A stretch of DNA of 64,000 bases from assembly GCA_963749835.1 (NCBI GenBank), contig CAVVOD010000004.1:361061-425060 (forward strand), in the 5' to 3' direction. How positions within the stretch are numbered: the first letter of the stretch is position 1; every line of letters starts with the position of its first letter. The DNA comes from an uncultured Acidobacteriota bacterium. Lineage in GTDB: Bacteria > Acidobacteriota > Vicinamibacteria > Vicinamibacterales > 2-12-FULL-66-21. Below the pieces are notes generated by a model. That model was not told the DNA's origin. It ran no database searches and saw only the letters and a program-made list of their open reading frames with translations. Below are positions 2,616 to 61,176 of this stretch, piece by piece. A program made the position numbers and the translations under genes.

Positions 2616-2885
2616 CTATCGCTCGTGGAGGCGGTACGCGAGCTCGCCGGCTTCAATCCTGATCGGCAACTGGTTCTCGCGGGTCGGGAGCGGGCATGTC
2701 GCGAAATCGGTGAAGGCGCACGGAGGGTTGTACGCGTGGTCGAAGTCGAGGATGACGATGCCGTCCTGCGGGAGCGGCGTGTGGAGAAAACGGCCGGCGG
2801 GATTGGTGGCGTCCCGGCTGGTCAGATCCTTGAAAATGAAGAACAGATCCTTCCGCTCGTCGGTTTCGTAGATGAGAGCTGACAG
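2616..2885 (-). pseudogene. DUF1684 family protein, C-terminal remnant (~88 codons, no start codon)
   Basis: My minus-strand translation gives [86 protein letters not shown]. It carries the DUF1684 hallmark (LDFNxAYNPPCA..CP.P..EN.L). An in-frame TAG lies immediately upstream inside the heptamer array. There is no room for the N-terminal half before dinB. Confidence 0.6.
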
Positions 2886-2930
2886 CTAATAGCTGACAGC
2901 TGAGAGCTGAGAGCTGAGAGCTGAGAGCTG
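2874..2930. repeat. tandem heptamer array (NANAGCT)x8, mostly GAGAGCT
   Basis: gagagct gacagct aatagct gacagct gagagct gagagct gagagct gagagct, read directly. The same family in opposite orientation is at 8503-8573. Confidence 0.9.
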
Positions 2931-5739: not shown

Positions 5740-5774
5740 ATGGGCCGTCCGTCTATTATGGACTCATTCGAGGT

Positions 5775-5989
5775 GATCGACTCGGGATCCGGGACTCGGG
5801 ACTGGGGATTCGTGGCCGAGCTGGACTGCCAGAGATCGAGCCCGAATCCCGAGTCCGGTCCTATCGAGTCCCGAATCCCGACTGACCGAGTCCCGAATCC
5901 CGACTGACCGAATCCCGAATCCCGACCGACCGAATCCCAAATCCCCACTGACCGATCCCGAGTCCCGAGTCCCGGATCCCGAGTCGATC
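5775..5989. repeat. composite hairpin element: 29-bp perfect terminal inverted repeats (5775-5803 / 5961-5989) enclosing 4 tandem 22-bp units (5866-5953) built from CCCGARY heptamers
   Basis: gatcgactcgggatccgggactcgggact is the exact reverse complement of agtcccgagtcccggatcccgagtcgatc. The units are gagtcccgaatcccgactgacc x2, gaatcccgaatcccgaccgacc and gaatcccaaatccccactgacc. Confidence 0.9.
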
Positions 5990-7235
5990 ATTTCTGCCGG
6001 ACGTCGAACGCCGTCACATTGTCCTGATCGCGGATGAAGAGCTTGCCGTTCGAGACGACGGGATGGCTCCATGTCGGCAGGCTGCCGGTTGGAATCTGGA
6101 AGCGGCCGTGCTCCCGGTATCCGGCCGGGCTGGCCTCGGCGAGGCCGACGACTCCCTGCTCACTGTAGAGGTACAGCCGGTCGTCCGCGAAGACCACGGA
6201 TCCCTTGCCCACGCTGCGATCTCGCCACGCGACCTCGCCGCTGTCGAACTTCATGGCGGTCAGGATCGCGTCGGAGAACCCATAGAGATGATCGCCGATG
6301 AGCACCGAGCTCGCGTGATGGTTCCGCATCTCGCGCGTGAAGTAGACCTGCTTCGCGTCGATGCGGCCGCTCCCCGGCGTCAGCTCGAGGAGCGCGGCCC
6401 CTGTGCTGTAGCCCGACGAGAGGAACACGTGGTTCCCACGGACAATCGGCGTCGCGATGTTGGCCGTGCGGTTGGCGACCTGGGTGTAACTCCACTGCAG
6501 CTTCCCGGTTTCGATGTCGATGCCGAGCGCCCGTTCACCGGTGAAATAGATGGCTTCTCGGATGCCTCCGGCTTCGTGGAGCACGGCCGACGAGTACCCG
6601 GGCTCATCCGCGAGGCTCTTCCAGATAAGGGAACCGTCCGTCTTCTTGAGCGCCACGATGGAGGCTCCCTGGCCTCCGGGGCTGACGAGGATCCGATCGC
6701 TCAACACCAGCGGCGATTCGCTGAGCCCCCACTGAATGTTCCGGCCACCGAACTTCTCCAGGACGTTGACCTTCCAGAACACCTTGCCCGTGGCGGACTC
6801 CACGGCCGCGAGATCACCGCTGGCGCCGAACACATACAGGCGGTCGCCGTCCACCGTCGGCGTGGCCCTTGGACCGTCGCCCCGATCATTTCCGAACTGG
6901 CGGCCGTGCGGGACCTCCCACAGCTTCTTACCGGTCGCGGAATCGAACGCCATCACATATTCGGTCCCACCTCGTGCGCCGAGGGTATACAGGCGCCCGT
7001 TGCCGGTCGCGAAGGATGAGTAGCCCGCGCCGGCGCCCGCGGCGCGCCACGCGACGGGAGGTCCGGTCTTTGGCCAGTCCTTGAGAAGGCCCTTCTCGAC
7101 CGACACGCCGTCCCGCTTTGCGCCCCGCCACTGGGGCCAGTCGTCCAGCGAACGGTTCGAAACCGCCGCCGGGAGGGAGAGCATGGCAATTACGGCCAGG
7201 GCAGGACCCGCCGAACGGCGAAAGCGTGAATTCAT
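5988..7235 (-). CDS. secreted PQQ-like / BamB-type beta-propeller repeat protein
   Basis: ORF 5988..7322. I prefer the internal ATG at 7235 (MNSRFRRSAGPALAVIAMLSLPAAVS signal peptide, GGAG about 8 nt upstream). Repeated ..W....G......P.v.dg.vy.. blades are typical of PQQ-like propellers. Confidence 0.85.
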   Translation of the reverse strand: MNSRFRRSAGPALAVIAMLSLPAAVSNRSLDDWPQWRGAKRDGVSVEKGLLKDWPKTGPPVAWRAAGAGAGYSSFATGNGRLYTLGARGGTEYVMAFDSATGKKLWEVPHGRQFGNDRGDGPRATPTVDGDRLYVFGASGDLAAVESATGKVFWKVNVLEKFGGRNIQWGLSESPLVLSDRILVSPGGQGASIVALKKTDGSLIWKSLADEPGYSSAVLHEAGGIREAIYFTGERALGIDIETGKLQWSYTQVANRTANIATPIVRGNHVFLSSGYSTGAALLELTPGSGRIDAKQVYFTREMRNHHASSVLIGDHLYGFSDAILTAMKFDSGEVAWRDRSVGKGSVVFADDRLYLYSEQGVVGLAEASPAGYREHGRFQIPTGSLPTWSHPVVSNGKLFIRDQDNVTAFDVRQK

Positions 7236-8476: not shown

Positions 8477-8502
8477 GCGCGAATTATACGGGGCGGGCAG
8501 TT

Positions 8503-8612
8503 CTCAGCTATTCAGCTCTCAGCTCTCAGCTCTCAGCTCTCAGCTATCAGATCTCAGCTCTCGGCTAACAGGCTTTTCCGGCGAGCCCCGGGCCCCGAAT
8601 CCCGAGTCCCGA
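8503..8612. repeat. tandem heptamer array (CTCAGCT)n, about 10 units (8503-8573), followed by a short CCCGARY run (8590-8612)
   Basis: tcagcta ttcagct ctcagct x4 atcagat ctcagct ctcggct, then ccccgaatcccgagtcccgaac. Read directly. Confidence 0.85.
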
Positions 8613-8836
8613 ACTGGACCTCAGCCCTCGCCGCGAGAGCGCGACGACAGATCTACTCATCCGCGCAGTCTCAGCAATATACGGATCGTGCTCCCTGAAC
8701 ATCGAAACGCAGTTCTCAGCCCAGCTTTTTACATCCCAATTAAGATATTGCAAACAAAGCACTTATGTCATGCATGGATACTACGGTAGCGGATGAGGCG
8801 GTGTAATGCTGAGTTAGAGGAGTATAGTGTCCTACC

Positions 8837-11885: not shown

Positions 11886-12233
11886 AAACACGGAGGCACG
11901 AAGACACGGAGTCCGGACGGAGGCCCCACGAAACGGGTGGTCGGGGCGCGCTCCGCGCGGTGCGGCGAGGACATCTCGCAAACACAAACTCCATCTCACT
12001 TACGGGGAGCTTGTGTTTGCGAGATCTCCTCGCTGCACTCGCCGGCCGAATGGCCGGCGCCCGACCACCCCGGACTCCCCGCAGTCCTATGGCGACAGCG
12101 ACAACAGCCACGGTTGGACACGGCCATCCTCCGAACGGCCCGTGCCTTCGGGTAACCCCCAATCTCTCCGTGCGTCCCCGTGTCTCAGTGGCTCCGTGGT
12201 GGAATTTTCCGTGCCCTCCGTCTCCTCCGTGCC
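11886..12233. mobile_element. MITE-like multi-hairpin element, copy D1 (CACGGAG-type inverted termini, central ~26-bp-stem hairpin 11966-12030)
   Basis: Left end is aacacggaggcacgaagacacggag. The right end ctctccgtgcgtccccgtgtctcagtggctccgtggtgg is the reverse complement of a sequence nearly identical to the left end of D2 (ccaccacggagtcactgagagcacggagacgcacggagag). Internal inverted pair: gggtggtcggggcgc / gcgcccgaccaccc. No ORF with protein character. Confidence 0.65.
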
Positions 12234-15200
12234 CTATCCCCCCGGCGCCACTGGGACAGGCGCCGGGTCGTACGCGAGGTTCGGCGCGAGCCAGCGCTCG
12301 ATGGTCTCGATGTCGGCATCCTTCCGCATGGCGTAGGACTCCACCTGATCCCGTGCAATCCGGCCGACGTTGAAGTACTTCGCCTCCGGATGTGAGAAGT
12401 ACAGCCCGCTCACCGAGGCCGCCGGCAGCATCGCAAAGCTCTCCGTCAGCGTGAGCCCCTGCCGGCCCGCGTCCAGCGCGTCGAACAGCTTGCCCTTCTC
12501 GGTGTGGTCCGGACACGCGGGATAGCCGTATGCCGGACGGATGCCACGATACTTCTCGGCGACGAGATCGTCGTTCGACAACTGTTCCTGGTCGCCGTAT
12601 CCCCAGTCCTTCCGCGCCTGCGCGTGGAGGTACTCCGCGAACGCCTCGGCGAGTCGGTCGGCCAGCGCCTTCACCATGATCGCGTTGTAGTCGTCGTGAT
12701 CCCGCTCGAAGCTCCGCGCCAGTTCGTCAGCGCCGAGTCCGGCCGTCACCGCGAACATCCCGATGTAGTCCGGCACGCCGGTGTCCAGCGGCGCGATGAA
12801 ATCCGCAAGCGATCGGTTCGGACGCTTGTCGGCAATCACTTCCTGCTGGCGCAGCATCGGCAGCCGCGTCAGCTCGACGCGACGCGTGTCGTCCGCGAAC
12901 ACGACGATGTCGTCGCCGACGCTGTTGGCGGGCCAGAAGCCATAGACACCACGGGCCGACAGCAGCTTCTCCTTGATGATCCGCTTGAGGAGTTCCTGCG
13001 CGTTCGCATACAGCTCGCGTGCGGCCGATCCGTAGGTCGGATGTTCCAGGATCGCGGGGAAGCGCCCCTTGAGCTCCCAGGCCGAGAAGAAGAACGTCCA
13101 GTCGATATACCTGGCAATATCCTCGAGCGCCACGTCATCCAGGTATCGGCGCCCGACGAACCACGGTGACGCAATGACGTGACCGTCCCAGTCGATCGTG
13201 AGGCGGTTCGCGCGCGCCTGCTCATACGTCAGCAGCGGTTTCTGCCGCCGCGTGGCGTAGCTCTCGCGAATCTCCGCCTGCGCCACACGGTTCACCCGGT
13301 CGAACTCCTCCCGCCTCTCGCCGATGACGCTTGACACCACGTCCACCGCCCGCGACGCGTCGAGCACGTGGATCACCGGGCCGGAGTATTCGTGCGCAAT
13401 CTTGACGGCCGTGTGCTGCCGGCTCGTCGTCGCTCCCCCAATCAGGAGCGGCGTCGTGAAGCCGCGGCGCTCCATCTCCCGCGCGACGAACGCCATCTCG
13501 TCGAGCGACGGCGTGATGAGCCCGCTCAGCCCGATGATGTCGGCCTTGTGTTCCACCGCCGCATCGAGGATCTTCGCCGCCGGGACCATCACCCCGAGGT
13601 CGATCACCTCGTAGTTGTTGCAGCCCAGCACGACCCCGACGATGTTCTTGCCGATATCGTGAACGTCTCCCTTCACCGTCGCCATCAGGACACGGCCCTG
13701 CGCCGACGCGGCGCCCGTGATGCGCTTACGCTCTTCCATGTACGGCAGCAGGTAGGCGACCGCCTTCTTCATCGCCCGCGCGCTCTTGACGACCTGCGGC
13801 AGGAACATCTTGCCCGCACCAAACAGATCGCCGACGACCTTCATCCCGTCCATCAGCGGGCCCTCGATGATGTGCAGCGGCTCTTCATACTTCTGCCGCG
13901 CCTCCTCGACGTCCACCTCGATGAAGTCCACGACGCCGTGCACGAGGGCGTGCGACAGCCTCGCCTCGACGGTGGCCTCGCGCCAGCCGAGATCGGCTTC
14001 CCGCTTCGTCCCGCTCCCCTTGACGCTGTCCGCGAACTGCACGAGCCGCTCCGTCGCGTCAGGACGACGGTTGAAGATGATGTCTTCGACGTGTTCCAGC
14101 AGGTCCTTCGGGATGTCTTCGTAGACGATCAGCTGTCCGGCGTTGACGATGCCCATGTCCATGCCGGCCTTGATGGCGTGATACAGGAACGCGGAATGGA
14201 TGGCCTCGCGGACGACGTCGTTGCCGCGGAACGAGAAGGACAGGTTGCTGACGCCGCCGCTGATCTTGGCCCCCGGACAGGTCGCCTTGATGATCTTCAG
14301 CGCCTCGATGTAGTTGACCGCATAGTTGTTGTGCTCCTCGAGCCCTGTCGCGATGGCGAGGATGTTCGGATCGAAAATGATGTCGGTCGGATCGAACCCC
14401 GCCTGCTGGATGAGGAGCGTGTAGGCGCGCTGGCAGATCTGCACCTTGCGCTCGACGGTGTCCGCCTGGCCTGTCTCGTCGAAGGCCATGACGACGACGC
14501 CGGCGCCGTACCGGCGGACCGTCCGCGCCTTGTGGAGGAAGTCCTCTTCCCCTTCCTTCAGGCTGATGGAGTTGACGACCCCCTTGCCCTGGACGCACTT
14601 GAGTCCGGCCTCGAGCACGGTCCACCGGGAGCTGTCGATCATCACCGGGACCCGCGCGATCTCCGGCTCCGTCGCGATGAAGTTCAGGAACGTCGTCATC
14701 GCCTGCTCGGAATCGAGCATGCCTTCGTCCATGTTGACGTCAATCATGTTGGCGCCGCCGCGCACCTGCTCGACCGCGACGCTGACGGCCTCGGTGTAGT
14801 TCCCGCTCTTGATCAGCCGCGCGAACTTCGCCGACCCCGTGACGTTGGTGCGCTCGCCAATCATCTGGAAGTTGCTCTCCGGACGGATCGTCAGCACTTC
14901 GAGCCCGGAGAACTGGGAATAGTGGACGGGATCGGGACTCGGGGCTCGAGACTCGGGATTCGGGGCTCGGGACTCGGGGCTCGGCTCGGATTCGGGACTC
15001 GGGATTCGCCCGCCCCCGCTCGCATCCACATCTGTGCGAGCTACGGCGAGGCCGCGCCGTAGCCGCGCCGCGGCGGAGGCGGGGGACTCGGGGCTCGCCG
15101 GATCGGGACTCGGCGACCCGGGCGCCGTAGCTTCCGCCTTCAGGCGGAAGGATGCTGCAGACACCCATGACGGCGACGGCAGCGGCCGCGGCGTCACGCG

Positions 15201-17300: not shown

Positions 17301-17373
17301 GGTCAGCTCTCAGGTCTCAGCTGTGAGCCATTGGTATCGGAGCTGAAAGCTGAGTGCTGAGAGCTGAGAGACC
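17301..17373. repeat. inverted pair of GAGAGCT-family heptamer runs forming an imperfect hairpin
   Basis: ggtcagctctcaggtctcagctgtgagcc .. ggagctgaaagctgagtgctgagagctgagagacc. It lies between the M13 peptidase stop and the SahR-like start. Confidence 0.75.
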
Positions 17374-19448: not shown

Positions 19449-22076
19449 CTACAACCCGGTCGGCAATGCGGCGGCGCGCCGCGCCCTGAGCCACTCGGTC
19501 AGCTTCGCGGGTTGCGTGGCGGCAAGCGAGGAGCACTCGTTGATCCGCTCGACCGCCTGCTGGAGTGTCCGCGTGGCATCCGGCACCTTGTGAAGGGTGA
19601 AGAACTGCTTCACGTTCACGGCTGTCCGCGCGTCGCAGAACGTGCCGAGCGCGGCAATCACCTGAGTATTGCCCCCGAACTGGCCGGTTTTCTTCTGCAC
19701 CTGCGCCCATCGTTCACGGAGGAGCGGCCAGGCGAGTTTCCGCGCGTCAGGGTTGCCCAGCAGATTCGCCAGGAAGACCTTGGCGTCCTGGCTGCGCACA
19801 TCCGGCCCGACGATGTAATCGATCGTCCTGCGCACCAGGGCGGGATCGGTGAAGCCGGCGAGCCCGTACAAATAGCGATAGTGCTCTTCGGGGTCCGTCG
19901 CGGCTTTGCTACGCTCGACATACTTGGCGTACAGCGCGGCGTCACCACGCCGGGCCGCCACTCTGACAGCGGCGTTCAGCAGGGTCGGCTCGACGGTGCC
20001 TGGTTTCGCAAGCTCCTCGAGGACCAGGCTGCGCGCCTTCGCGACGACGGCAGGATCGCCGGCGGCCTCGCCCAGTACCGAGACGAGCGACGCGCGAAGC
20101 GCGCGGGTCTCGTCGCTATCGGAGGCACCGGACGACCATCCGACCCGTTCGAGTGCCGGCCCCAGCAGCGAGCTGACCCACGCACTGTACGCCGGCCGCG
20201 AGCCGGGCGTGGTCAGGTTGTCGCCGATGGTTCCCAGCGAGGCCACCAGTGTGGCGACGACCGCCGCGTCCCGCTCCCCTTTGAATCCAGCGGCGAGGTC
20301 CATGAAGGAGCTGACATCATGCCGTCCCTGGAGCACAAGTGCCCACTCGTCGTCGAGGAGCGAGATCCGCTCGCCGGGCGTCAGTGACGTGATGCCTGCC
20401 GCAAGCTTCGGAAGCATCGCCGGCGGATTCACGACACGGTAATAGCCCCGCGCCCCTGCGTTGGCCATCACATATGCGGGGCACGACTCCAGCGGCACAT
20501 CCAGGGGCTCCTCGCCGACGACCTCGCATGCCGTCTTCCCGTCTGGCGTCTTTATGCAGACCGGAATGTCCCATGTGCGCGGCGGGGCGACGCGGCGGGG
20601 CCCCGAGGCGCCGGTCGGCGCCGTCTCCTGACTGACCGTCGCTGTGCCACGGCCGTCAGCGCACTTGACCGTCGCATCCACCATCGGCACGCCGGGCCGA
20701 TCCACGAAGCCGGCCATCACGCGATCGACGGGCTTCCCGGTGCTCGTCGCCAGCGTGCCCCAGAAGTCCTCTGCGGCGGCATTGCCGTACTTGAACCGTT
20801 CGATGTAGGCGTTGACGCCGGTCCTGAACGCCTCTTCGCCGACCCATGCCTCGATCATCCGGAGCACGGCTGCCCCTTTTCGTACGCGATCGCGTCGAAG
20901 AGCTCGCCGATCTCGTCGGGAGTCGATGCGCTGGTACGGATCGCGCGGGTCGTCTCGAGAGAGTCGAGCGCCATCGCTTTCTGGTTCGACTGAACCTCCT
21001 CGAGCTCCATGTTCCACTCGGGCTTCCATGCCTTGACCGGCTTGCTCGCCATCCACGTGGCGAACCCTTCGTTCAGCCAGATGTCGTCCCACCACCGCAT
21101 CGTCACGAGATCGCCGAACCACTGGTGGGCCATTTCGTGGGCGAGCACGCTGGCGATGTTCTTGCGGACCCTGACCGACGCGCCTTTCGGATCGGCGAGG
21201 AGGAGCGTCTCGCGGTAGAAGATCGCGGCGGTGTTCTCCATCGCTCCCGCGGCAAAGTCCGGGACGGCAACGATGTCGAGCTTCTTGAACGGATACTTCA
21301 CGGTGTAGTAGCGGTTGTAGTACCCGCAGGATCTCGGCGGCCGCCTCGAGCGCCAGGCCGGTCTGCCCCTTCTTGTCCGGTGTGGAGCAGATGCGAATCG
21401 GGATCCCGTCGGCGCTGCGTGACGAGCATTCGAAGTCCCCGACCGCCAGCGCCAGCAGGTACGTCGACATCTTCGGCGTGGTCTCGAATGTGACCGTGTG
21501 CTTCCCCGGCTTCGGGCTCGGCGTGTCGGACACGATCGCGCCGTTCGAGATCGCGTGGTCTCCCGTGTCGATCGTGGCGCTCAGCGCGAACGTCGCCTTG
21601 AACGCGGGCTCGTCGAACGACGGAAACATGCGTCGCGCGTCGGTCGCCTCGAGCTGCGTCACTGCGTAGCGGCGATTGTTGGCCTTGCTGAGATACAGCC
21701 CGCGCAACTGGTTGTTCAGGATGCCGGTGTATTTCACGGCGATCTCGGCGCGCCCCGCGGCAATGACCTGCGGCACCGTGAAGGTGGCCTGTTCGCGCTT
21801 CGGGTCCAGCGTGACGCGGGCGGTCTGCGTGCTGCCGCCGGCAGCGATGGTGACCGTGTCGAATGTGATCTCCGCAGCGTTCAGGGTGATCGTCCGCGAA
21901 GGCTTCTCGAGCGTCACGGTAATCCGCTCGGTGGCCGTAAAACTCGCCGCCGGGAGGTTCGGCTCGACGGCGATCTCGTAGTGCTCCGGGACGACGTTGC
22001 CAGGGAGCCGCTGGGCACGGGCGGGGGAGGCGAAGAGGATCAGCGCGGCACTGAGGACCAGAGGAAATTTACTCAT
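19449..22076 (-). pseudogene. pepN: M1 family aminopeptidase N, disrupted by two compensating 1-nt frameshifts (or sequencing errors) that scramble the catalytic core
   Basis: Begins MSKFPLVLSAALILFASPARAQ at ~22076 inside the 1401-aa track ORF. The catalytic segment ([22 protein letters not shown]) is only readable in another frame (track ORF 20855..21301). Frame switches are at ~21324-21326 (extra G: ctgcggGtactac) and ~20873-20876 (one G missing: gaaaagggg^cagcc, expected [10 protein letters not shown]). Confidence 0.85.
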
Positions 22077-22121
22077 GATGGCACCCGATGAAAGCTCCAA
22101 CTGACGGCCTATACTGGCCGG

Positions 22122-22742
22122 GTGAAAATGAAAGTGTACCCCAGCGCACGTCCTGTGGCCGCGCTCGTGCTGGCGCACGGCGCGGGCGCGGGGCAATCCA
22201 GCCCATTCATGGTTCGCGTCGCCACCGGACTGGCTGAGCGGGGACTCTCCACCGCGACCTTTGATTTCGGCTACATGAGCACGGGACGCAAGGTGCCTGA
22301 CCGCGCGCCCGTGCTCGAAGCCGCGTGGCGCGAGGCGATCGAGTCGGCCCGATCGGAGTTCAGGGGACTGGCGCTCTACATCGGCGGCAAATCCATGGGC
22401 GGACGCATCGCTTCCCACGTGGCCTCGCAGGGAGGAACCGGCCCGCTCGCCGGCCTGGTCTTCCTGGGTTATCCGCTGCATCCGCCGGGGCGTCCCGACC
22501 AGCGCCGCGACGCCCACCTGCCGGCCATCGCTGAACCGATGCTCTTCGTGCAGGGAAGCCGGGACGCCTTCGGCTCGGGGGATGAGATTCGTCAGCTGCT
22601 GCCGTCGCTGCAGCACGCGACGCTGGAGGAGATCCAGGGAGGCGACCACTCCTTCAAAGTCCCGGGCGGCGCCAGCCAGCAGGCGCCCGTCCTCACGGGC
22701 ATCATGGACGCGGTAGCCGCGTGGACACAGAGGACGGCCTGA
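22122..22742 (+). CDS. alpha/beta hydrolase (KANL3/Tex30-like predicted hydrolase family)
   Basis: 206 aa. ..LVLAHGAGAG.., nucleophile elbow ..GGKSMGGR.., ..FVQGSRDAFG.., ..GGDHSF. Confidence 0.8.
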   Translation: MKMKVYPSARPVAALVLAHGAGAGQSSPFMVRVATGLAERGLSTATFDFGYMSTGRKVPDRAPVLEAAWREAIESARSEFRGLALYIGGKSMGGRIASHVASQGGTGPLAGLVFLGYPLHPPGRPDQRRDAHLPAIAEPMLFVQGSRDAFGSGDEIRQLLPSLQHATLEEIQGGDHSFKVPGGASQQAPVLTGIMDAVAAWTQRTA

Positions 22743-22761
22743 CTTGCGCCTGCGCTCGATG

Positions 22762-22890
22762 CGGGAGCTACGGCGGGGCCAGGCCCCATTTCGGGATTCG
22801 GGACTCGGGACTCGGGGTTCGGAAATGCGGAAGCTGGAAGCCGGAAGCTGGAAGCCGGAAGCTGGAAGCTGGCAGCTGACAGCTGATGTC
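22762..22890. repeat. spacer holding three abutting heptamer families plus GGGAGCTACGGCGG and a GGGGCC-A-GGCCCC palindrome
   Basis: gggattc gggactc gggactc ggggttc, then cggaagc tggaagc x6, then tggcagc tgacagc tgatgtc. Read directly; all have a 7-nt period. Confidence 0.9.
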
Positions 22891-22898
22891 TGCCCCTG

Positions 22899-23555
22899 AT
22901 GTCTGAGTCTGACCTTCGCCTCATCGCTGCGACGACCCATGGCCGCGTCCTGGTGCGCGACGCGCGGGCGGCCGCCGCGCGGGGAGTCCTCGTGGGGTTC
23001 CATGGCTACATGGAACAGGCGGTCATCCAGATGGAGCGGCTGCAGGCGATTCCCGGAGCCGCGCGGTGGACGCTCGTGTCCATCCAGGCGCTCCACCGGT
23101 TCTACCGGGGGCGCAGCGAAGAGGTCGTGGCAAGCTGGATGACGAGCCAGGATCGCGAGGCCGCCATCGCCGACAACATCGAGTACGTCGATGCGGCGCT
23201 CGACACGGTCCCCCACGATGCGTCCACGAAGATCGTCTTTGCGGGTTTCTCGCAAGGCGTGGCCATGGCCTTCCGGGCCGCGGTCAGAGGACGTCGTCCC
23301 GCCGCGGGCGTCATTGCGGTTGGCGGCGACGTGCCGCCGGAACTGCTGCTGGATCAGGACGCGGCGTTCCCGTTCGTGCTGCTCGCACGGGGCGCGCGCG
23401 ACGAGTGGCTCACCGCACAGAAGTTCAGAGCGGACCTGAACGCTCTCGCGGAGCGCACGCCTGGACCGAGAGTTCGCGCCGTCGAATTCGAGGGCGGACA
23501 TGAATGGAACGACGCCGTGGCCGAGGCGGCGGGGGATTTTCTCGAGTCCGTCTAG
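22899..23555 (+). CDS. phospholipase/carboxylesterase-type alpha/beta hydrolase
   Basis: 218 aa. ..VLVGFHGY.., nucleophile elbow ..FAGFSQGVAMA.., C-terminal ..GGHEW. Confidence 0.8.
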   Translation: MSESDLRLIAATTHGRVLVRDARAAAARGVLVGFHGYMEQAVIQMERLQAIPGAARWTLVSIQALHRFYRGRSEEVVASWMTSQDREAAIADNIEYVDAALDTVPHDASTKIVFAGFSQGVAMAFRAAVRGRRPAAGVIAVGGDVPPELLLDQDAAFPFVLLARGARDEWLTAQKFRADLNALAERTPGPRVRAVEFEGGHEWNDAVAEAAGDFLESV

Positions 23556-23754
23556 TGTCCTGACCGCGTGGATCGTGCATAAGTCCCGGAGCGCGGCGCC
23601 CGGCTGGCTAGGCGCGACGACCGAGAATACTGGCCGTATTTGAGGGAGGAGCAACGCCGCCAGGCCGGGGCCCCCGCCGCGCGTGTTTTGCGCGGTGGGG
23701 TGGAGAAGGGATGCCCCGCCCGGGAATTATGTCGCGAACCACGCGGTCAGGACA

Positions 23755-24279
23755 CTAAGTCTCCGTCCTGGTCGCTGTGTTCGTGTTCGTCCCGGTGTCC
23801 GTCTTCGTTTCCGGCTTACTGCTCGGGGCTCCGGCCTTCCTCCTGTGCCGCACGCCGGCTTCTTCGACAGAGTGTGACTGCGTCAACGTGACATCGCGAG
23901 CCGCCATCGTCACGAGCTTGTGATAGTGCCGGCGAAGCAGGTTGAGCTCGTCCTCAGAAAGTGACTCCACTTCGATCAGGCGGTTGCTCGCGCCGTCCAG
24001 CGCGGCGACGATCTCGTTCAGCTTCAGGTGAATCGCGAGCGAGTCCTTGTTCTGCGAGCGCTGGATCAGGAACACCATCAGGAACGTCACGATGGTCGTG
24101 CCGGTGTTGATAATCAGCTGCCAGGTGTCCGAATATCCGAAGAGCGGTCCGGTGATCAGCCAGATGAGGATGGTGGCTGCTGCGATTGCGAACGCGGAGG
24201 TGCCGCCGGTCCAGTGCGTAACGCTCGTCGCGAGCCGCTCCAGCCCGCGGCCGAAAGAGTTGTGTGGTTTTCGCCCCAT
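23755..24279 (-). CDS. low-affinity iron permease family membrane protein
   Basis: I prefer the start at MGRKPHNSF (24279). ..HWTGGTSAFAIAAATILIWLITGPLFGYSDTWQLIINTGTTIVTFLMVFLIQRSQNKD..LHLKLNEI.. matches the family signature. Confidence 0.8.
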   Translation of the reverse strand: MGRKPHNSFGRGLERLATSVTHWTGGTSAFAIAAATILIWLITGPLFGYSDTWQLIINTGTTIVTFLMVFLIQRSQNKDSLAIHLKLNEIVAALDGASNRLIEVESLSEDELNLLRRHYHKLVTMAARDVTLTQSHSVEEAGVRHRRKAGAPSSKPETKTDTGTNTNTATRTET

Positions 24280-35204: not shown

Positions 35205-35555
35205 CCACCACGGAGTCACTGAGAGCACGGAGACGCACGGAGAGGCCCGGATGGCTTCGGGCGTTGTCTCAGAAATCAGCGTTCAGGCTTTGTTGCCGGA
35301 GTCCCGTTGGGAGGGTCGCGCGAAGCGCGGCCCGACCACCTCGATCTGGGACGGGTGGTCGGCCGCGCTTCGCGCGGTAGACCGGTAGGGGATCACTCAC
35401 ACACCAACTCGATAAGAGGGCATGCGCGAGCTTGTGTATGAGTGATCCCCTGCCGGTTCTGCGCCGGCCAAGGCCGGCGCCCGACCACCGACCAACAGCG
35501 GCAAGCCAGCCCGTTCCCTCCGTGCGCTCCGTGTCCCCGTGGTGATCTTCGTGAT
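35205..35555. mobile_element. MITE-like multi-hairpin element, copy D2 (central hairpin 35388-35450)
   Basis: Left end is ccaccacggagtcactgagagcacggagacgcacggagagg and right end ccctccgtgcgctccgtgtccccgtggtg, so the termini are inverted. Internal pairs: gcgaagcgcggcccgaccacc / gggtggtcggccgcgcttcgc and gcgccggccaaggccggcgc. Track ORF 35101..35388 is not protein-like. Confidence 0.65.
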
Positions 35556-38231: not shown

Positions 38232-38520
38232 GTCTTCCGGGACACGGATGCTACGGACGAGCACAGATGCACACGGATCGGACACGGCGTCCACAATCGG
38301 GATGGCCGCGGCGCTTCGCGCCGTGAGTGCGGCTGAGATCAAGAATGCGAGCACGTGAGGGAGCAGCAGTGTTCGCATTCTCGATCTCAGTCGCGCTCAC
38401 CCCGCAGGCCGGCGGCGGCCAGCACACTGCATATCGCACTGTATTAACAGTTGCCCACCCGCAGTGCTCTTGATCCGCGTTCTTCCGTGTTATCCGTTTT
38501 GTCCGTGTCCTGGTCTTTGT
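38232..38520. mobile_element. MITE-like multi-hairpin element, copy D3 (ACACGGA-type inverted termini; central 30-bp-stem hairpin 38325-38398)
   Basis: Left end is gggacacggatgctacggacgagcacagatgcacacggatcggacacgg; right end is gatccgcgttcttccgtgttatccgttttgtccgtgtcc. In the central stem gagtgcggctgagatcaagaatgcgagcac / gtgttcgcattctcgatctcagtcgcgctc, 26 of 30 pairs are Watson-Crick. Confidence 0.6.
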
Positions 38521-44030: not shown

Positions 44031-44080
44031 CTTCCGCCTAAAGGCGGAAGCTACGGAGTCCCGATCCCCGATCCCCGATC
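44031..44080. terminator. hairpin module CTTCCGCC-TAAA-GGCGGAAG-CTACGG followed by CCCGATC heptamers, filling the 59-nt spacer between convergent ldcA and the M49 peptidase gene; candidate bidirectional terminator
   Basis: cttccgcctaaaggcggaagctacggagtcccgatccccgatccccgatc, read directly. It has an 8-bp GC-rich stem and a 4-nt loop. The terminator function is inferred only from its position. Confidence 0.5.
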
Positions 44081-46098: not shown

Positions 46099-46172
46099 TT
46101 CCTTCCGCCTGACCAGCCTGCGCCAAACCCCGAACCCCGAGTCCCGAATCCCGATCCCCCGAGTCCCGAATC
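46099..46172. repeat. half hairpin module (CCTTCCGCCTGA..) plus a CCCGARY heptamer run with six C-tracts
   Basis: ccttccgcctgaccagcctgcgccaaaccccgaaccccgagtcccgaatcccgatcccccgagtcccgaatc. It abuts the beta-CASP gene stop. Confidence 0.8.
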
Positions 46173-47626
46173 TAGTCCAACTCTACGGTCTCGCGGTGCT
46201 GCGGCATCATCGTCTTCCAGCCGAGCTTCGCGGTGATGGATGCGCCAAGTGCTTCCATCGATGCCGGCTCTCCATGCACCAGGAAGGTCGTGCGCGGTGG
46301 ACGGCTGAAGCCGCCGAGCCAGCGCAGGATCTCGGTGGAGTCTGCGTGGGCCGACATCGATTCAATCAGCTCGACCCGGCAGTTGACGGGAATCGTCTGG
46401 CCGTGGATACGGACCGTCTTCTGGCCGTCCACGAGTTGCCGGCCGCGCGTACCGACGGCCTGGTATCCGGCAAAGAGCACCGTGTTGCGGGCGTCGGGCA
46501 GGCATGCCTTGAGGTGATGCAACACCCGGCCGCCCGTCGCCATCCCGCTGGCGGAAATGATGATCGCCGGCGTTTTCGACTGCGTCAGCTGTTTGGATTC
46601 CGCCGCGGTCGAGATGGTCTTGAACCGCTCCGTGCAGAACGCACAAATCTGGCGCTCGCGCTGCGCGTGGCGGCGGCGGGTCTCCGGCGGGTCGAGCCGG
46701 GCCGCGGGCCCGTGCGGCGCCTTGTCGTCGTGCGCCTCCGGCTGCATGTCTGGATCGAGCTCGCGAAGCCGCTCGGTGTATCGGGCCAGCGCCTCGACGG
46801 CCATGGGGCTGTCGACAAACACTGGAAGCATCGGGATACGCCGCTCTTCCTCAAGCCGCTTCACCCAGTAGATCAGCTCTTCGACGCGCCCGATGGCGAA
46901 TGCGGGGATGATCACCCGGCCGCCGCGTCCTTCTGCCGCCGTGATCGCCTGCGCCAGCGCCGAGCCGCTGTCGTCTGCGTCGTGCACCCGATTGCCGTAC
47001 GTGGACTCGACGAGCAGGTAGTCGGCCTCCGGGACGAGCGTGGGATCGGGCAGCACCGGACGGTCGAAGCGTCCGAGGTCGCCGCCGAACAGAATCGTGC
47101 GTCCCCCTGTCTTGACGCGCGCATACGAGGAGCCGAGCAGATGCCCGGCGTTGATGAACTCGACCTCGACGTCGGCCGCCACCGGCATGGGGCGCTCGTA
47201 CCCGACGGGTTGCAGCAGCGAGACGGCGCGGAACGCGTCGGCCTCGCCATACAGCGGCAGCGCGGGGGCATGCTTCGAGTATCCGTGACGATTCGCGTTC
47301 GCCGCGTCTTCTTCCTGGATGCGGCCCGAGTCCGGGAGGACGATCCGGCACAGATCCTGGGTGCCGGCCGTGCAGAACACCCGTCCCCTGAAACCCTGCG
47401 CCACGAGCCGCGGCAGATACCCGCAATGATCCAGGTGCGCGTGCGTGAGGACGATCGCGTCGATTTCCCGGGGCGGTACGGGGAACTCCTGCCAGTTCCG
47501 CTCGCGCAGCTCCTTGAGCCCCTGGAAAAGACCCGCGTCGATGAGGACCTTGGCGGTGCCGGTGTCGAGCAGGTATTTGGAGCCCGTGACCGTCCGGGCT
47601 GCGCCGAGGAAGGTGATGGAAGGCAT
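46172..47626 (-). CDS. MBL-fold metallo-hydrolase of the beta-CASP RNA-metabolising family
   Basis: 484 aa. ..ITFLGAARTVTGSKYLL..VLIDAGLFQG.., ..VLTHAHLDHCGYLP.. (HxHxDH), ..ESTYG.., ..SMSAHAD.. Confidence 0.88.
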   Translation of the reverse strand: MPSITFLGAARTVTGSKYLLDTGTAKVLIDAGLFQGLKELRERNWQEFPVPPREIDAIVLTHAHLDHCGYLPRLVAQGFRGRVFCTAGTQDLCRIVLPDSGRIQEEDAANANRHGYSKHAPALPLYGEADAFRAVSLLQPVGYERPMPVAADVEVEFINAGHLLGSSYARVKTGGRTILFGGDLGRFDRPVLPDPTLVPEADYLLVESTYGNRVHDADDSGSALAQAITAAEGRGGRVIIPAFAIGRVEELIYWVKRLEEERRIPMLPVFVDSPMAVEALARYTERLRELDPDMQPEAHDDKAPHGPAARLDPPETRRRHAQRERQICAFCTERFKTISTAAESKQLTQSKTPAIIISASGMATGGRVLHHLKACLPDARNTVLFAGYQAVGTRGRQLVDGQKTVRIHGQTIPVNCRVELIESMSAHADSTEILRWLGGFSRPPRTTFLVHGEPASMEALGASITAKLGWKTMMPQHRETVELD

Positions 47627-47666
47627 GGAGGTTCAGTATAATCGTGGGCGGCAGGCAATCCGCTCG

Positions 47667-48530
47667 ATGCAACCCCTCCTCGACAATCTGCGTTCGGGAC
47701 GTCCGGTGATTGCGGCGGAGCTCCGGCCGCCGCGGGCCGAGCTGGAGACGTCCGCGAGCATGGATGCCTGGATCGACACATATCATGCCGTGCGGAACCT
47801 CACTCGCACCGGCACATTCGTCTTCCTGACCGACAGCGCCGTCGGCTCGAAGGAGGAAGACAATCTCCGGCATCTGGTGATCAATCTCGGGAGCGACGTC
47901 CCTCGCGCCGGTGTCGTGCCGTTCCTGACGTGCAAGCACCCGCTCGACTATTGCCTGGCCTACGCGGATCGCGCACGGGATCAGGGATTCGAGGCACTGG
48001 TCGTCCTCGGCGGCGACACGAGCGTCGGTGCCCCGCGGTGCCTCGAGCACGCCTGGCAGCTCCGCGGCGAGATCCGCCAGCGCGTGCCTGGCCTTACGCT
48101 CGGCGGGTGGGCCAATCCGCACAGGAATGCCGCCACGCAGGTCGGACACCTGCTCTCGGAGCACGCGAACGCCGAGTTCTACCTGACGCAGATCGTCTCG
48201 CATCACAGCCGCGCGCACGTCGAAGGGTTCCTCGAAGAGTCGGACAGGCGCGCCCTGTCACTTCCCGGCATGTTCGGCGTGTTCTACTACCGCTCGGCCA
48301 ATGCCAAGACCCTCGCCGCGCTCAGCGGCTTCCTGCCCGTTCCCGCCAGGGAACTGACAGCGGAGTTCGCGGCGGGAGCGACGCCGGAAGAGATCTGCGC
48401 GCTCTCGATCCGCAGCCTCACCGCCGCAGGCGTGCGGCATTTCTATGTGAGCAACCTCCCGATCAATCGCGCCGCGCAAACGCTCCAGCGCATCATGGAC
48501 CTGGCCGGGGCGGTGACCGCCATTCCCTAG
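47667..48530 (+). CDS. methylenetetrahydrofolate reductase-like protein
   Basis: In track ORF 47445..48530. Its segments are collinear with MetF (ELRPP, PFLTCKH, ALVVLGGD, GGWANP, FYLTQIV, PGMFGVF, VRHFYVSNL). The start is uncertain (ATG 47667 preferred; 47616 or 47625 possible). Confidence 0.7.
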   Translation: MQPLLDNLRSGRPVIAAELRPPRAELETSASMDAWIDTYHAVRNLTRTGTFVFLTDSAVGSKEEDNLRHLVINLGSDVPRAGVVPFLTCKHPLDYCLAYADRARDQGFEALVVLGGDTSVGAPRCLEHAWQLRGEIRQRVPGLTLGGWANPHRNAATQVGHLLSEHANAEFYLTQIVSHHSRAHVEGFLEESDRRALSLPGMFGVFYYRSANAKTLAALSGFLPVPARELTAEFAAGATPEEICALSIRSLTAAGVRHFYVSNLPINRAAQTLQRIMDLAGAVTAIP

Positions 48531-48542
48531 CCGCTTCGCGGC

Positions 48543-48646
48543 CGGATCGGGATTCGGGATTCGAGTCCCGAGTCGTCTTCCGGCTAAAGCCGGAAGCTAC
48601 GTGGTGCAGGTCCCGATCCCCGAACCCCGAATCCCGAATCCCGAGT
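48543..48646. repeat. composite: G-orientation heptamers, hairpin module CTTCCGGC-TAAA-GCCGGAAG-CTACG (48577-48601), then C-orientation heptamers
   Basis: ggatcgggattcgggattcgagtcccgagtcgtcttccggctaaagccggaagctacgtggtgcaggtcccgatccccgaaccccgaatcccgaatcccgag, read directly. Confidence 0.9.
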
Positions 48647-49314: not shown

Positions 49315-49319
49315 AGGCT

Positions 49320-49354
49320 CGAATCCCCAATCCCTGATCCCTCATCCCTGATCG
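49320..49354. repeat. heptamer array (NNATCCC)x4-5 directly upstream of the aminotransferase ATG
   Basis: gaatccc caatccc tgatccc tcatccc tgatcgg, followed by tATG. It fills the whole 42-nt spacer. Confidence 0.85.
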
Positions 49355-49356
49355 GT

Positions 49357-59569: not shown

Positions 59570-60622
59570 GTGACCATGGACCCGGCGGCGCAGAAGGCGA
59601 TCGTGGGATGGGGCATCGCGATGACGGCGCTGGCCGTCGTCATTCTCTGGTGCGCCTATCTGGTGCGCGAGGTGCTGCTCCTCATCTACGTCAGCGGGCT
59701 GCTGGCGATCGGGTTCAGTCCGATCGTGCGCCTGATCGAGCGGCAGAAAGCGCTGCCCATCGGGACGCGGCGGTTCCCGCGCTGGCTTGCCATCCTGACG
59801 CTCTACCTGTTCATCCTGGGGACGCTGACGGGCATCGGATTCATGATCGTGCCGCCCGTGGTCCATCAGGGGCAGCAGCTCTGGACGGCGTTCCCCGACA
59901 TGTTCGATCGCGGTCAGGAGTTCCTGATCCAGAAGGGCATTCTCAAAGAGCACCTGACGCTGCGGGAAGCGGTCGCGCGCGCTCCCAAAACAGGAAGCAG
60001 CGAGGCGGTCGGCACGGTGATGGGGGCCGTCGTCGGGGTGGTGGGCGGGCTCTTTGGTCTCCTCACGATCCTGATTCTCACCTTCTACCTCCTCGTCGAG
60101 GCGGACAACCTGCGCGAGACGATGCTCCGGCTGTTTCCCCGGCGGAATCGGACGCGCGTCGCCGCGGCGAGCCGGGACATCACGGTGAAGGTGAGTGCGT
60201 GGCTCGGGGGCCAGCTGCTGCTGGGCGCTATCATCGGCGGCTCATCGGCGCTTGCACTCTGGCTGCTCGGCATCCCGTTCTTCTACGTGCTGGCACTCAT
60301 TTCCGGGATTGGAGAGCTCATCCCGGTCGTCGGTCCCATCCTGGCGGCGATTCCCGCGATCATCGTCGCGTCCACGGTTTCGCTGAACAAGGCGATCCTG
60401 GTGATCGTGTTCTTCATCGTCCAGCAGCAGTTCGAGAATCACGTCCTCGTTCCCAAGATCATGGAGCGCCAGGTGGGTGTGAGCGCGGTGACCGTGATCA
60501 TTGCGCTGCTCATCGGCGGGAAACTCCTTGGCATCCCGGGAGCCATTCTCGCCGTGCCGAGCGCCGCGATCCTGCAGGTCCTCTTCACGGAATTCACCAC
60601 GCAGCGGGACAGGCAGAGCTGA
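59570..60622 (+). CDS. AI-2E family transporter (PerM/YhhT-like)
   Basis: 350 aa, about 8 hydrophobic helices. ..ELIPVVGPILAAIPAI.. and ..QQFENHVLVPKIM.. are family signatures. Confidence 0.88.
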   Translation: MTMDPAAQKAIVGWGIAMTALAVVILWCAYLVREVLLLIYVSGLLAIGFSPIVRLIERQKALPIGTRRFPRWLAILTLYLFILGTLTGIGFMIVPPVVHQGQQLWTAFPDMFDRGQEFLIQKGILKEHLTLREAVARAPKTGSSEAVGTVMGAVVGVVGGLFGLLTILILTFYLLVEADNLRETMLRLFPRRNRTRVAAASRDITVKVSAWLGGQLLLGAIIGGSSALALWLLGIPFFYVLALISGIGELIPVVGPILAAIPAIIVASTVSLNKAILVIVFFIVQQQFENHVLVPKIMERQVGVSAVTVIIALLIGGKLLGIPGAILAVPSAAILQVLFTEFTTQRDRQS

Positions 60623-60623
60623 A

Positions 60624-60754
60624 GGGGACTCTGGATCGGGGATCGGGGATCAGGGATTGGGGACTGGGGACTGGGGATAAGGGATTGGGACGTTCGAGTC
60701 CTCGAATCCTGAATCCCGAGTCCCCGATCCCTGATCCCCGATCCCCGATCCCGG
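60624..60754. repeat. long hairpin of opposed heptamer runs: 24-bp perfect inverted repeat (60634-60657 / 60727-60750); the G-rich arm has >=8 G-tracts
   Basis: gatcggggatcggggatcagggat is the exact reverse complement of atccctgatccccgatccccgatc. The sequence between the arms is also partly self-complementary (ggggactggggactggggataagggattggga / tcctcgaatcctgaatcccgagtcccc). Confidence 0.9.
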
Positions 60755-60840
60755 CCCGGTTGGCACCCGCATTGATGGGCGCCATCGCGACGGCGACTTC
60801 CTGGCCGGAATAGGCAGGCCGCGGGAGACTTGGCGGAAGG

Positions 60841-61176
60841 GTGAGTGGTGAAATGAGCACCGCCGGTGGTACCCGCCGGAACCTGTTCGGCGATGTCGCA
60901 CTCGTCGCGTTCCTGCTGGCGCAGGCATCGGACGGTGTGCTGACCTACATCGGCGTGCGCACTTTCGGGGTGCGCATCGAAGGCAACCCTCTCATCGCGT
61001 GGCTGATGACCGCCATGGGCGAAGTCCCCGCGCTCGCCACAGCCAAGCTGACGGCCGGGTTCTTCGGCGTCGCCCTCCACATGTCATCCGTTCACCGGGC
61101 TGTCGCGCTGCTGGCGGCTTTTTATGTCGCCGTCGCGGTCGTCCCGTGGATCGCGATCCTTTTCTACCTCAACTGA
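60841..61176 (+). CDS. small membrane protein, DUF5658-like
   Basis: 111 aa (GTG start in the track; ATG 12 nt downstream). Three hydrophobic helices. ..LAQASDGVLTYIGV...EGNPL..W... Confidence 0.65.
   Translation: MSGEMSTAGGTRRNLFGDVALVAFLLAQASDGVLTYIGVRTFGVRIEGNPLIAWLMTAMGEVPALATAKLTAGFFGVALHMSSVHRAVALLAAFYVAVAVVPWIAILFYLN

Follow-up and report, generated by a model that had tools for sequence, protein, structure and literature searches.

The DNA analysed here, referred to as the window, is a stretch of 64,000 nucleotides with a GC content of 65% from an uncultured Acidobacteriota bacterium (assembly GCA_963749835.1, contig CAVVOD010000004.1), and its proteins are closest to those of metagenome-assembled genomes (MAGs) of Acidobacteriota, order Vicinamibacterales. 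Our subject is a hairpin at positions 60624-60757 that is built from two facing arrays of tandem heptanucleotides. The G-rich arm begins 1 nt past the TGA stop codon (60620-60622) of a gene for an AI-2E family transporter, and the C-rich arm stops 3 nt before a candidate sigma-54-type promoter element (TGGCACCCGCATTGA), which is followed by a gene for a small DUF5658 membrane protein (Table 1). The hairpin occupies the entire spacer from the transporter stop codon to this promoter. The promoter reading is based on the -24/-12 consensus of sigma-54 promoters: a TGGCAY-N5-TTG(A/C) element is kept upstream of the DUF5658 gene in the related loci L001, L008, L009, L012, L014, L017, L018, L021, L028, L161 and L162, and this conserved TGGCAY-N5-TTG is a signature of a putative promoter of the sigma-54 type. 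The array sits where an enhancer-binding-protein or IHF site would normally lie, and any site upstream of the DUF5658 promoter is shifted by 0-138 bp between relatives by the array. Since the array follows a stop codon, lies upstream of the -24 element and is flanked by genes of housekeeping types, its placement is not that of a phase-variation simple sequence repeat.

Letter for letter, the G-rich arm (GGGGACTCTGGATCGGGGATCGGGGATCAGGGATTGGGGACTGGGGACTGGGGATAAGGGATTGGG, 60624-60692) agrees with an earlier annotation made from the letters of the window, hereafter the sequence-only reading, and the perfect 24-bp inverted repeat which that reading placed in the hairpin is exact. Tandem Repeats Finder (TRF) identifies both arms as period-7 arrays, with 8.1 copies of GGGGATC/AGGGATT/GGGGACT units at 60633-60689, and a variant unit, ATCAGGGAT, is common to both halves of the perfect outer stem. 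The longest inverted pair joins 60633-60678 to 60706-60751 (46 nt, 89% complementarity, 27 nt between the arms), and the locus folds into one long hairpin, whose energy is -113.4 kcal/mol (z = -9.5) for RNA and -54.2 kcal/mol (z = -8.3) for DNA. G-quadruplex (G4) motifs, defined as four tracts of at least three G separated by 1-7 nt (G3+N1-7), are present as claimed, at 60638-60689 on the + strand and at 60715-60757 on the - strand. Scoring with G4Hunter, which the sequence-only reading had proposed and which we ran at a window size of 25 nt, places the two highest values of the whole stretch on this locus: 2.20 (60630-60692) and 2.16 (60719-60760; the C-rich arm, -2.16). In total, 11 G3+N1-7 motifs occur in the window, all but one of them inside heptamer arrays; 200 dinucleotide shuffles gave 3.3 +/- 1.9 (maximum 9). 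The units at this locus are thus of the kind predicted by sequence rules to form G4s and i-motifs.

To weigh the two folds, we used ViennaRNA with G-quadruplex energies enabled. The full-locus RNA stays a hairpin without any G4 on either strand (-108.2 and -96.7 kcal/mol), and the hairpin energy is about -108 kcal/mol with or without the G4 term; the full-locus DNA model contains a small G4 at the apex only. The isolated G arm favours the G4 (RNA, -30.7 versus -13.3 kcal/mol; DNA, -27.1 versus -1.2 kcal/mol). Because both arms together fold as a hairpin and the G arm alone as a G4, the energy model leaves room for a G4 only at loci with a single arm, or else as a kinetic product that forms while the C arm is still to be made.

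Close relatives were compared at the same sites. Measured from the AI-2E stop codon to the promoter, the window allele comprises 138 nt, a GGGGAYY hairpin with 9-10 G-tracts and a G4 motif (z = -12.6). In L162, where the AI-2E protein is 95% identical and the DUF5658 gene likewise follows, the site is a 79-nt GGGATC/CCCGAAT hairpin (z = -8.5), again with a G4 motif. In L161, the closest relative (AI-2E 97% identical), it comprises 133 nt in which CCAGTTT heptamers face AACTGGN heptamers; this hairpin (z = -8.2) has one G-tract and no G4 motif. L163-L166 (AI-2E 90-91% identical) have neither an array nor a DUF5658 gene, and the more distant L004, L006 and L017 carry CTGAATC-, ATCACTG- and ATCCTGA-type arrays. 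Orthologous alleles of the AI-2E/DUF5658 spacer are not alignable, and a DNA pattern covering the AI-2E gene end had no match in the metagenomes.

Similar turnover is seen in the region near metH, for which the comparison genomes encode MetH proteins 93-94% identical. The NYN/PQQ_2 spacer holds a heptamer hairpin of 215 bp (GGGACTC/CCGAATC) in the window, about 45 bp (GGGGTTC) in L158 and about 270 bp (GGTTCCG/GCGTTCC) in L159, between almost identical flanks. The methyltransferase/M13 peptidase spacer has a heptamer array in the window only: L158 and L159 are without it, and L160 has a different insert. Copy number of the (GGGATTC)n(GGGAAGC)n array in the Abhydrolase spacer is different in all four close relatives, and the length of the array in the MetH linker varies among MetH proteins 90-94% identical. 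Even where the flanking proteins are 93-97% identical, genomes differ in whether an array is present, in its unit and in how many copies it has. The recurring feature is a 7-mer hairpin at the 3' spacer; G-tracts do not recur.

For a lineage-wide view, we drew on three collections of related DNA, namely orthologous loci of GTDB genomes (37), soil-metagenome loci (120; L038-L157, among the matches listed) that carry a repetitive extragenic palindrome (REP) core found in the window, and syntenic loci from very close relatives. A census of heptamer arrays with at least 3 copies covered about 0.93 Mb of this DNA. Of the tandem arrays, 14 of 16 have period 7 in the window, as do 13 of 36 from the orthologue loci and 87 of 173 from the REP loci; period 7 is the dominant tandem-repeat period of the lineage whatever the unit sequence. 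The 114 heptamer arrays fall into more than 60 unit classes, and 26 of the 114 are G4-capable on either strand; units with GGG or CCC make up 41%, compared with 32% expected for random heptamers of the same composition. An inverted partner lies within 300 nt of 49 out of 152 arrays, including arrays of the units AATGCTG, CGATATC and GAGGTCG. By context, 24 arrays are convergent, 45 tandem, 9 divergent and 11 intragenic, such that arrays favour spacers containing a gene 3' end. Within tandem spacers, a lineage-wide asymmetry towards the stop codon proved weak (median 26 versus 74 nt, 24 of 45 arrays nearer the stop). As a separate observation, most G-type units contain GATC, GANTC (GACTC, GATTC, GAATC, GAGTC) or AGCT, as do the arrays of L004, L006 and L017; the arrays are thus dense short palindromic sites, one every 7 bp, that could be methylation or restriction sites, although by our own estimate about one third of random heptamers hold a 4-bp palindrome.

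The hairpin at 60624-60757 is one of about 12 tandem heptamer loci that TRF finds in the window (Table 1), and a strict self-match scan recovered arrays at lag 7 only, among lags 5-15. Units with G- or C-tracts are GGGACTC, GGGATTC and GGGGATC; arrays without G-tracts, on which the sequence-only reading was silent, consist of TGAGAGC, CAGCTCT, TCAGCTC/GAGCTGA and GGAAGCT (22828-22886). Each further site at which the sequence-only reading had noted G4-type spacing does contain a G3+N1-7 motif (5784-5807, 14955-14979, 22793-22817, 46128-46167, 48612-48642 and 49325-49348). Its proposal that every listed locus could alternatively form a hairpin does not extend to four of them, as far as tested: no inverted partner was seen for 14928-15008, 22792-22825, 46125-46172 or 49320-49350, either among the 25 longest of 110 inverted pairs or in a separate partner search over 300 nt. 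Inverted G-type pairs lie at 60633-60678/60706-60751, 5774-5809/5955-5990 and 48547/48612. Nor is the metH array at a gene boundary, as had been supposed, since it lies in frame inside the linker that follows the homocysteine domain (aa 21-329) and precedes the pterin domain (aa 445-683).

What does hold in the window is that the arrays are non-random and placed at gene 3' ends. The distance from array to stop codon is 0-47 nt, and the sense strand is G-rich next to the stop codon in 7 of the 8 intergenic G-type loci; because inverted pairs are symmetric, only the five single arms are informative for strand bias, 4 versus 1 with a G-rich sense strand. The exception occupies almost the whole of a 42-nt spacer between co-directional genes (49315-49356), with no recognisable Shine-Dalgarno sequence before the ATG at 49357. 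Strong hairpins (z < -5) occur in 8 spacers of the window, none of them divergent and three of them built from heptamers; other long 3' hairpins are common in the window.

Table 1. Heptamer arrays of the window and the features flanking the hairpin at 60624-60757.
Feature	Coordinates	Strand	Remarks
AI-2E family transporter (PerM-like) gene	59570-60622	+	upstream gene; Pfam PF01594, E = 7e-61; orthologues at 97%, 95% and 90% identity
G-rich arm	60624-60692	+	~9 heptamer units (GGGGATC, AGGGATT, GGGGACT, ...), 9-10 G-tracts; from TRF and sequence reading
Outer stem, left half	60634-60657		perfect 24-bp inverted repeat; exact reverse complement of 60727-60750
C-rich arm	60694-60757	+	inverted heptamer array (CGAGTCC, TGAATCC, CCCGATC, ...)
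Outer stem, right half	60727-60750		perfect 24-bp inverted repeat
Candidate sigma-54-type promoter element	60761-60775	+	TGGCAC-N5-TTGA; sole TGGCAC-N5-TTGM match in window
DUF5658 small membrane protein gene	60841-61176	+	downstream gene; Pfam PF18902; same gene follows in L162
Non-G4 array	2873-2930		(TGAGAGC)8
Second G-type heptamer hairpin	5774-5990		outer 36-nt inverted repeat, 97% complementary (5774-5809/5955-5990); encloses CCGAATCCCGAATCCCGACTGA 22-mer array; overlaps stop codon of PQQ_2/BamB-like gene (- strand)
Non-G4 array	8498-8613		(CAGCTCT)10 (8498-8566) plus short CCCGAAT array; divergent spacer
Array in MetH homocysteine/pterin interdomain linker	14927-15008	-	translated in frame; C-rich strand in mRNA
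Non-G4 hairpin TCAGCTC/GAGCTGA	17303-17370		z = -6.9; 9 nt past M13 peptidase stop codon
(GGGATTC)n then (GGAAGCT/GGAAGCC)n	22790-22886	+	single orientation; 47 nt past Abhydrolase_11 stop codon
GTAG-type REP core (44031-44054), then (CCCGATC)3	44031-44080	+	between convergent genes; array overlaps TAG stop of M49 peptidase gene
Single-arm array	46126-46169	-	G-rich on sense strand; 2 nt past stop codon of beta-CASP RNase gene
Composite: short G-type arm, GTAG-type REP hairpin core (48577-48600), C-type heptamer arm	48547-48644	+	16 nt past stop codon
Single-arm C-type array	49325-49353	+	between two + strand genes; sole case with C-rich strand on sense side

Repeats of this kind are known from other phyla. 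Rehm, Wurmthaler, Li, Frickey and Hartig (2015, PMC4692102) described heptamer repeats of GGGAATC (GGGNATC) type for Xanthomonas and of GGGGA(C/T)T type for Nostoc, 89-93% of them intergenic at an average of 28 nt from the upstream open reading frame (ORF), under-represented between divergent genes and widely different in length and sequence between Xcc and Xac. About 70 convergent inverted pairs per genome, some of them just after stop codons, were noted as potential stem-loops or cruciforms (PMC4692102). The repeats considered here share with them the 7-bp unit of a G3-4 tract plus A-N-T/C (GGGGACT and GGGGATT are identical). They too are intergenic, mostly less than 50 nt past the stop codon of the gene upstream, have the G-rich strand on the coding side, often form convergent inverted pairs, are rare between divergent genes and vary greatly in length and sequence among close relatives. 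They differ in their host, which belongs to Acidobacteriota (Vicinamibacterales) rather than to Gammaproteobacteria or Cyanobacteria, and in that G-type units are one subset of more than 60 unit classes, many in inverted pairs. A further difference is that the nearest relative's orthologous site carries a non-G4 unit, which points away from G4 formation as the common denominator. The locus is thus an acidobacterial (Vicinamibacterales) counterpart of the GGGNATC/GGGGAYT heptamer repeats, of a kind already published and in a new phylum; a literature search on heptamer repeats in Acidobacteria returned none.

The TAACTGA repeats of Beggiatoaceae are reportedly one fixed unit, in direct orientation only and mostly just upstream of start codons. 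The heptamers here are instead diverse, often inverted and adjoin stop codons. Common to the arrays described here, the TAACTGA repeats (PMC4679880) and the cyanobacterial STRR (short tandemly repeated repetitive) heptamers is that all are abundant intergenic tandem heptamers of unknown function.

Taken together, we hold with moderate confidence that the locus is a hypervariable heptanucleotide-repeat hairpin, driven by slippage, tolerated and perhaps useful at transcript 3' ends, whose G4 and i-motif competence, a genuine physical property of the G-rich units that are common in this genome, is a by-product rather than what is maintained. Arrays would arise and turn over by replication slippage favouring 7-nt registers, and the likeness of the arms would be kept by duplication-inversion or by template switching within the palindrome. 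Work by Ripley and Lovett is said to have described template switching within quasi-palindromes as a mutational route that perfects palindromes. Since the perfect outer 24 bp share a variant unit, the arms appear to have been copied from one another rather than grown independently. A prokaryotic excess of period-7 repeats has been attributed to polymerase slippage (Mrazek, in the account given by PMC4692102).

With regard to function, the two arms, once transcribed, would give the upstream RNA a 3'-end hairpin of about 46 bp. By analogy with REPs and bacterial interspersed mosaic elements (BIMEs), such a hairpin would probably block 3' exonucleases or keep read-through from reaching the sigma-54-type promoter. 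The locus shares with intrinsic terminators, and with the U-tract-less 'I-shaped' hairpins of high-GC bacteria, a GC-rich stem-loop between a stop codon and the next promoter; it differs in its stem of about 46 bp rather than 5-15 bp, in having no U-tract and in its hypervariability, and a termination role is putative. An intrinsic terminator was not found here: the GC-rich stem is present and its 3' flank, CCCGGCCCGGTTGGCACCC, has no T run, and the locus is absent from the terminator-like sites scanned in the window. Canonical terminators in the window are not above chance (12 versus 10.9), nor are matches in a sigma-70 scan (0 versus 2.3), and no Rfam family matched anywhere in the window. 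Given that there is no terminator excess and that long 3' hairpins are common, a REP-like 3' barrier or insulator is probably the best functional guess.

Several observations weigh against this slippage-driven hairpin. In L001, L009, L012, L014 and L028, the same gene pair and promoter are separated by short spacers without repeats or a hairpin, and any function must therefore be dispensable. The hairpin of the window has no U-tract. The entire unit is replaced between relatives with 95-97% identity, which gradual slippage alone hardly explains and which could mean insertion or allele replacement. Finally, G-tract units are clearly enriched only in this genome (10 of 14, compared with 32% expected), and a by-product model predicts neither this enrichment nor the sense-side G bias (7 of 8), two counts that are to be read with the caveat that the arrays may share descent and so not be independent.

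An alternative that accommodates the whole-unit replacement holds that the hairpins are non-autonomous mobile elements, i.e., cassettes resembling miniature inverted-repeat transposable elements (MITEs) or REP doublets (REPINs), which insert beside stop codons so that different strains carry different cassettes at one hot spot. Presence/absence polymorphism in the methyltransferase/M13 peptidase spacer and the outer inverted repeats of 24 and 36 bp also fit such cassettes, as does a palindrome family that accompanies the heptamers. GTAG-tagged REPs, as defined by Di Nocera et al. (2013, PMC3733652), are short extragenic palindromes clustered downstream of genes, sometimes supplying or overlapping a stop codon or inserting in frame in ORFs, with proposed roles in mRNA stabilisation and termination. 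A family of this type (CTTCCGSCTRAAGSCGGAAG-CTAC) has three copies in the window, at 15127-15150 (-), 44031-44054 (+) and 48577-48600 (+), versus 0 expected. It also occurs in at least 120 soil-metagenome contigs, where copies stand singly, form tail-to-tail dimers (REPIN-like), run in tandem (L047, L144) or make tandems of partial units, and heptamer arrays flank its copies in L067, L071, L072, L110, L116, L124 and L146.

Within the metH linker (14927-15200, -), three inserts are translated in frame, namely a REP core (FRLKAEAT), another palindrome and the heptamer array. None of the closest MetH proteins (P0001-P0005, 90-94% identical) has the REP insert, whose presence here counts in favour of mobile cassettes. 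In the more distant MetH P0090, this linker holds two inserts of RLKADAT type, and MetH length in the clade ranges from 1236 to 1339 aa.

The heptamer hairpins themselves, however, lack the hallmarks of a mobile family. No two of them share termini or internal sequence, and no second copy of 60624-60757 occurs in the window. As regards MITEs, neither 60624/60757 nor 5774/5990 shows a target-site duplication and homologous copies are absent from the window; a Y1 transposase was not found among the 20 of about 50 window ORFs scanned against Pfam. The locus is built of tandem 7-mers of locus-specific sequence without a repeated consensus, in which it differs from GTAG REPs, and GTAG/CTAC is found neither in nor beside it. 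The graded copy-number differences in the Abhydrolase spacer are typical of slippage, not of transposition. As for the flanking REPs, their proximity to heptamers may reflect a shared preference for 3' spacers, and the soil-metagenome loci, having been chosen for carrying REPs, do not allow this association to be assessed. We therefore consider mobile cassettes unlikely.

The interpretation offered by the sequence-only reading was that selection acts on the arrays as structural switches, which regulate what happens at gene boundaries through competition of the hairpin or cruciform with a G4 or i-motif. In a concrete form that we would give it, the G arm would be transcribed first and fold as an RNA G4, leaving the C arm single-stranded, e.g., for Rho loading; otherwise the hairpin would form. 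The competence half of this proposal stands. Besides the G4Hunter maxima, the threefold motif excess over shuffles and the preference of the isolated G arm, circular dichroism by Rehm et al. (PMC4692102) showed K+-dependent G4s for (GGGGACT)4 and (GGGGATT)4, with T1/2 above 95 C for some repeats and i-motifs for the complements. As these units are identical to ours, the oligonucleotide test proposed for the window has in effect already been done for them. Also in keeping with a switch, the G arm is 5' of the C arm in all three G-type hairpins of the window, the transcribed RNA carries the G-rich strand at four of the five single arms, and G-tract units are enriched in this genome.

The regulatory half fares worse. 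At the very site in question, the heptamer hairpin found in the closest relative is not of G4 type, 77% of the heptamer arrays in the lineage are not G4-capable, and, once both arms exist, the energy difference favours the hairpin over the G4 alternative by about 75 kcal/mol. The strand bias that the sequence-only reading had wanted checked is seen in the window but not across the lineage, where G-arm-first polarity is rejected as a rule (11 G-first versus 9 C-first). The metH array is translated with its C-rich strand in the mRNA, and this coding-region array, the single-arm loci and the absence of an array at the site in other relatives weaken the switch further. Rehm et al. explicitly raised the competition of stem-loops and G4s and found no regulatory role (PMC4692102). 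A hairpin-versus-G4 switch is thus physically reasonable and already published as a hypothesis; the comparative data do not support it as a selected function, and we judge such selection to be quite improbable.

At somewhat longer odds still, period-7 inverted arrays may be maintained at transcript ends by a sequence-independent process that preserves position, hairpin form and the 7-nt register but lets units be exchanged, as with GGGGATC, GGGATC/CCCGAAT and CCAGTTT at one site in relatives of 95-97% identity; the G-rich versions might add, through a co-transcriptional RNA G4 of the 5' arm that frees the C-rich 3' arm, a K+-sensitive choice between hairpin and Rho loading. Least probable of all is that the arrays are purely neutral mutational debris without effect on RNA or DNA transactions, persisting through the tolerance of 3' spacers: their extreme turnover, their absence in many relatives with the same gene order and their depletion in divergent, promoter-bearing spacers, as purifying selection alone predicts, are outweighed by the one third of arrays paired into hairpins, which is not a product of slippage alone, by three independent alleles at one site, each a long hairpin whose z is at or below -8, and by a -108 kcal/mol hairpin that is unlikely to be without consequence in a transcript.

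Other structured elements and annotation problems were encountered in the window. Three non-heptamer composites of about 120 nt (11940-12060, 35360-35480 and 38300-38420; about -80 kcal/mol each) have one architecture, consisting of a small GCGCG hairpin, a near-perfect hairpin of 31-37 bp that differs per copy, and a GCCGGCC-RA-GGCCGGC hairpin. All lie in spacers with a gene 3' end and match no Rfam family, and they may represent a second family of 3' structured elements. At 23553-23757, an inverted repeat with 45-nt arms (-140 kcal/mol) spans a whole convergent spacer, from the TAG stop of one gene to the CTA of the other. A frameshift in the M1 peptidase gene, suggested by an anomaly in third-codon-position GC content (GC3), was rejected, as the L158 orthologue aligns in tblastn over 876 aa without a change of frame (22076-19449). 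The 1401-aa ORF at 19449-23654 (-) is an artefact whose 5' extension overlaps two + strand hydrolase genes and traverses the stop-free arrays at 22790-22886. The ORF at 47445-48530 (+), which ends 16 nt before the composite element at 48547, has no Pfam match and its true start lies downstream of 47626; judged by eye, it has a C-terminus (GVRHFYVSNLPINRAAQTLQRIM) resembling those of proteins of the methylenetetrahydrofolate reductase type.

As 10 of the 11 G4 motifs in the window derive from one repeat class, the locus carries a caution for genome-wide G4 surveys. The natural allele series at one orthologous site separates hairpin formation and period 7 from G4 competence, and provides ready-made constructs for tests of 3'-end function. 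If maintenance by a sequence-independent process were true, it would imply modular, fast-exchanging terminator or insulator cassettes, or a dedicated machinery with a 7-nt register. The locus described here extends the accumulation of 7-bp repeats beside genes, a phenomenon of unrelated phyla, from Xanthomonas and Nostoc to soil Acidobacteriota.

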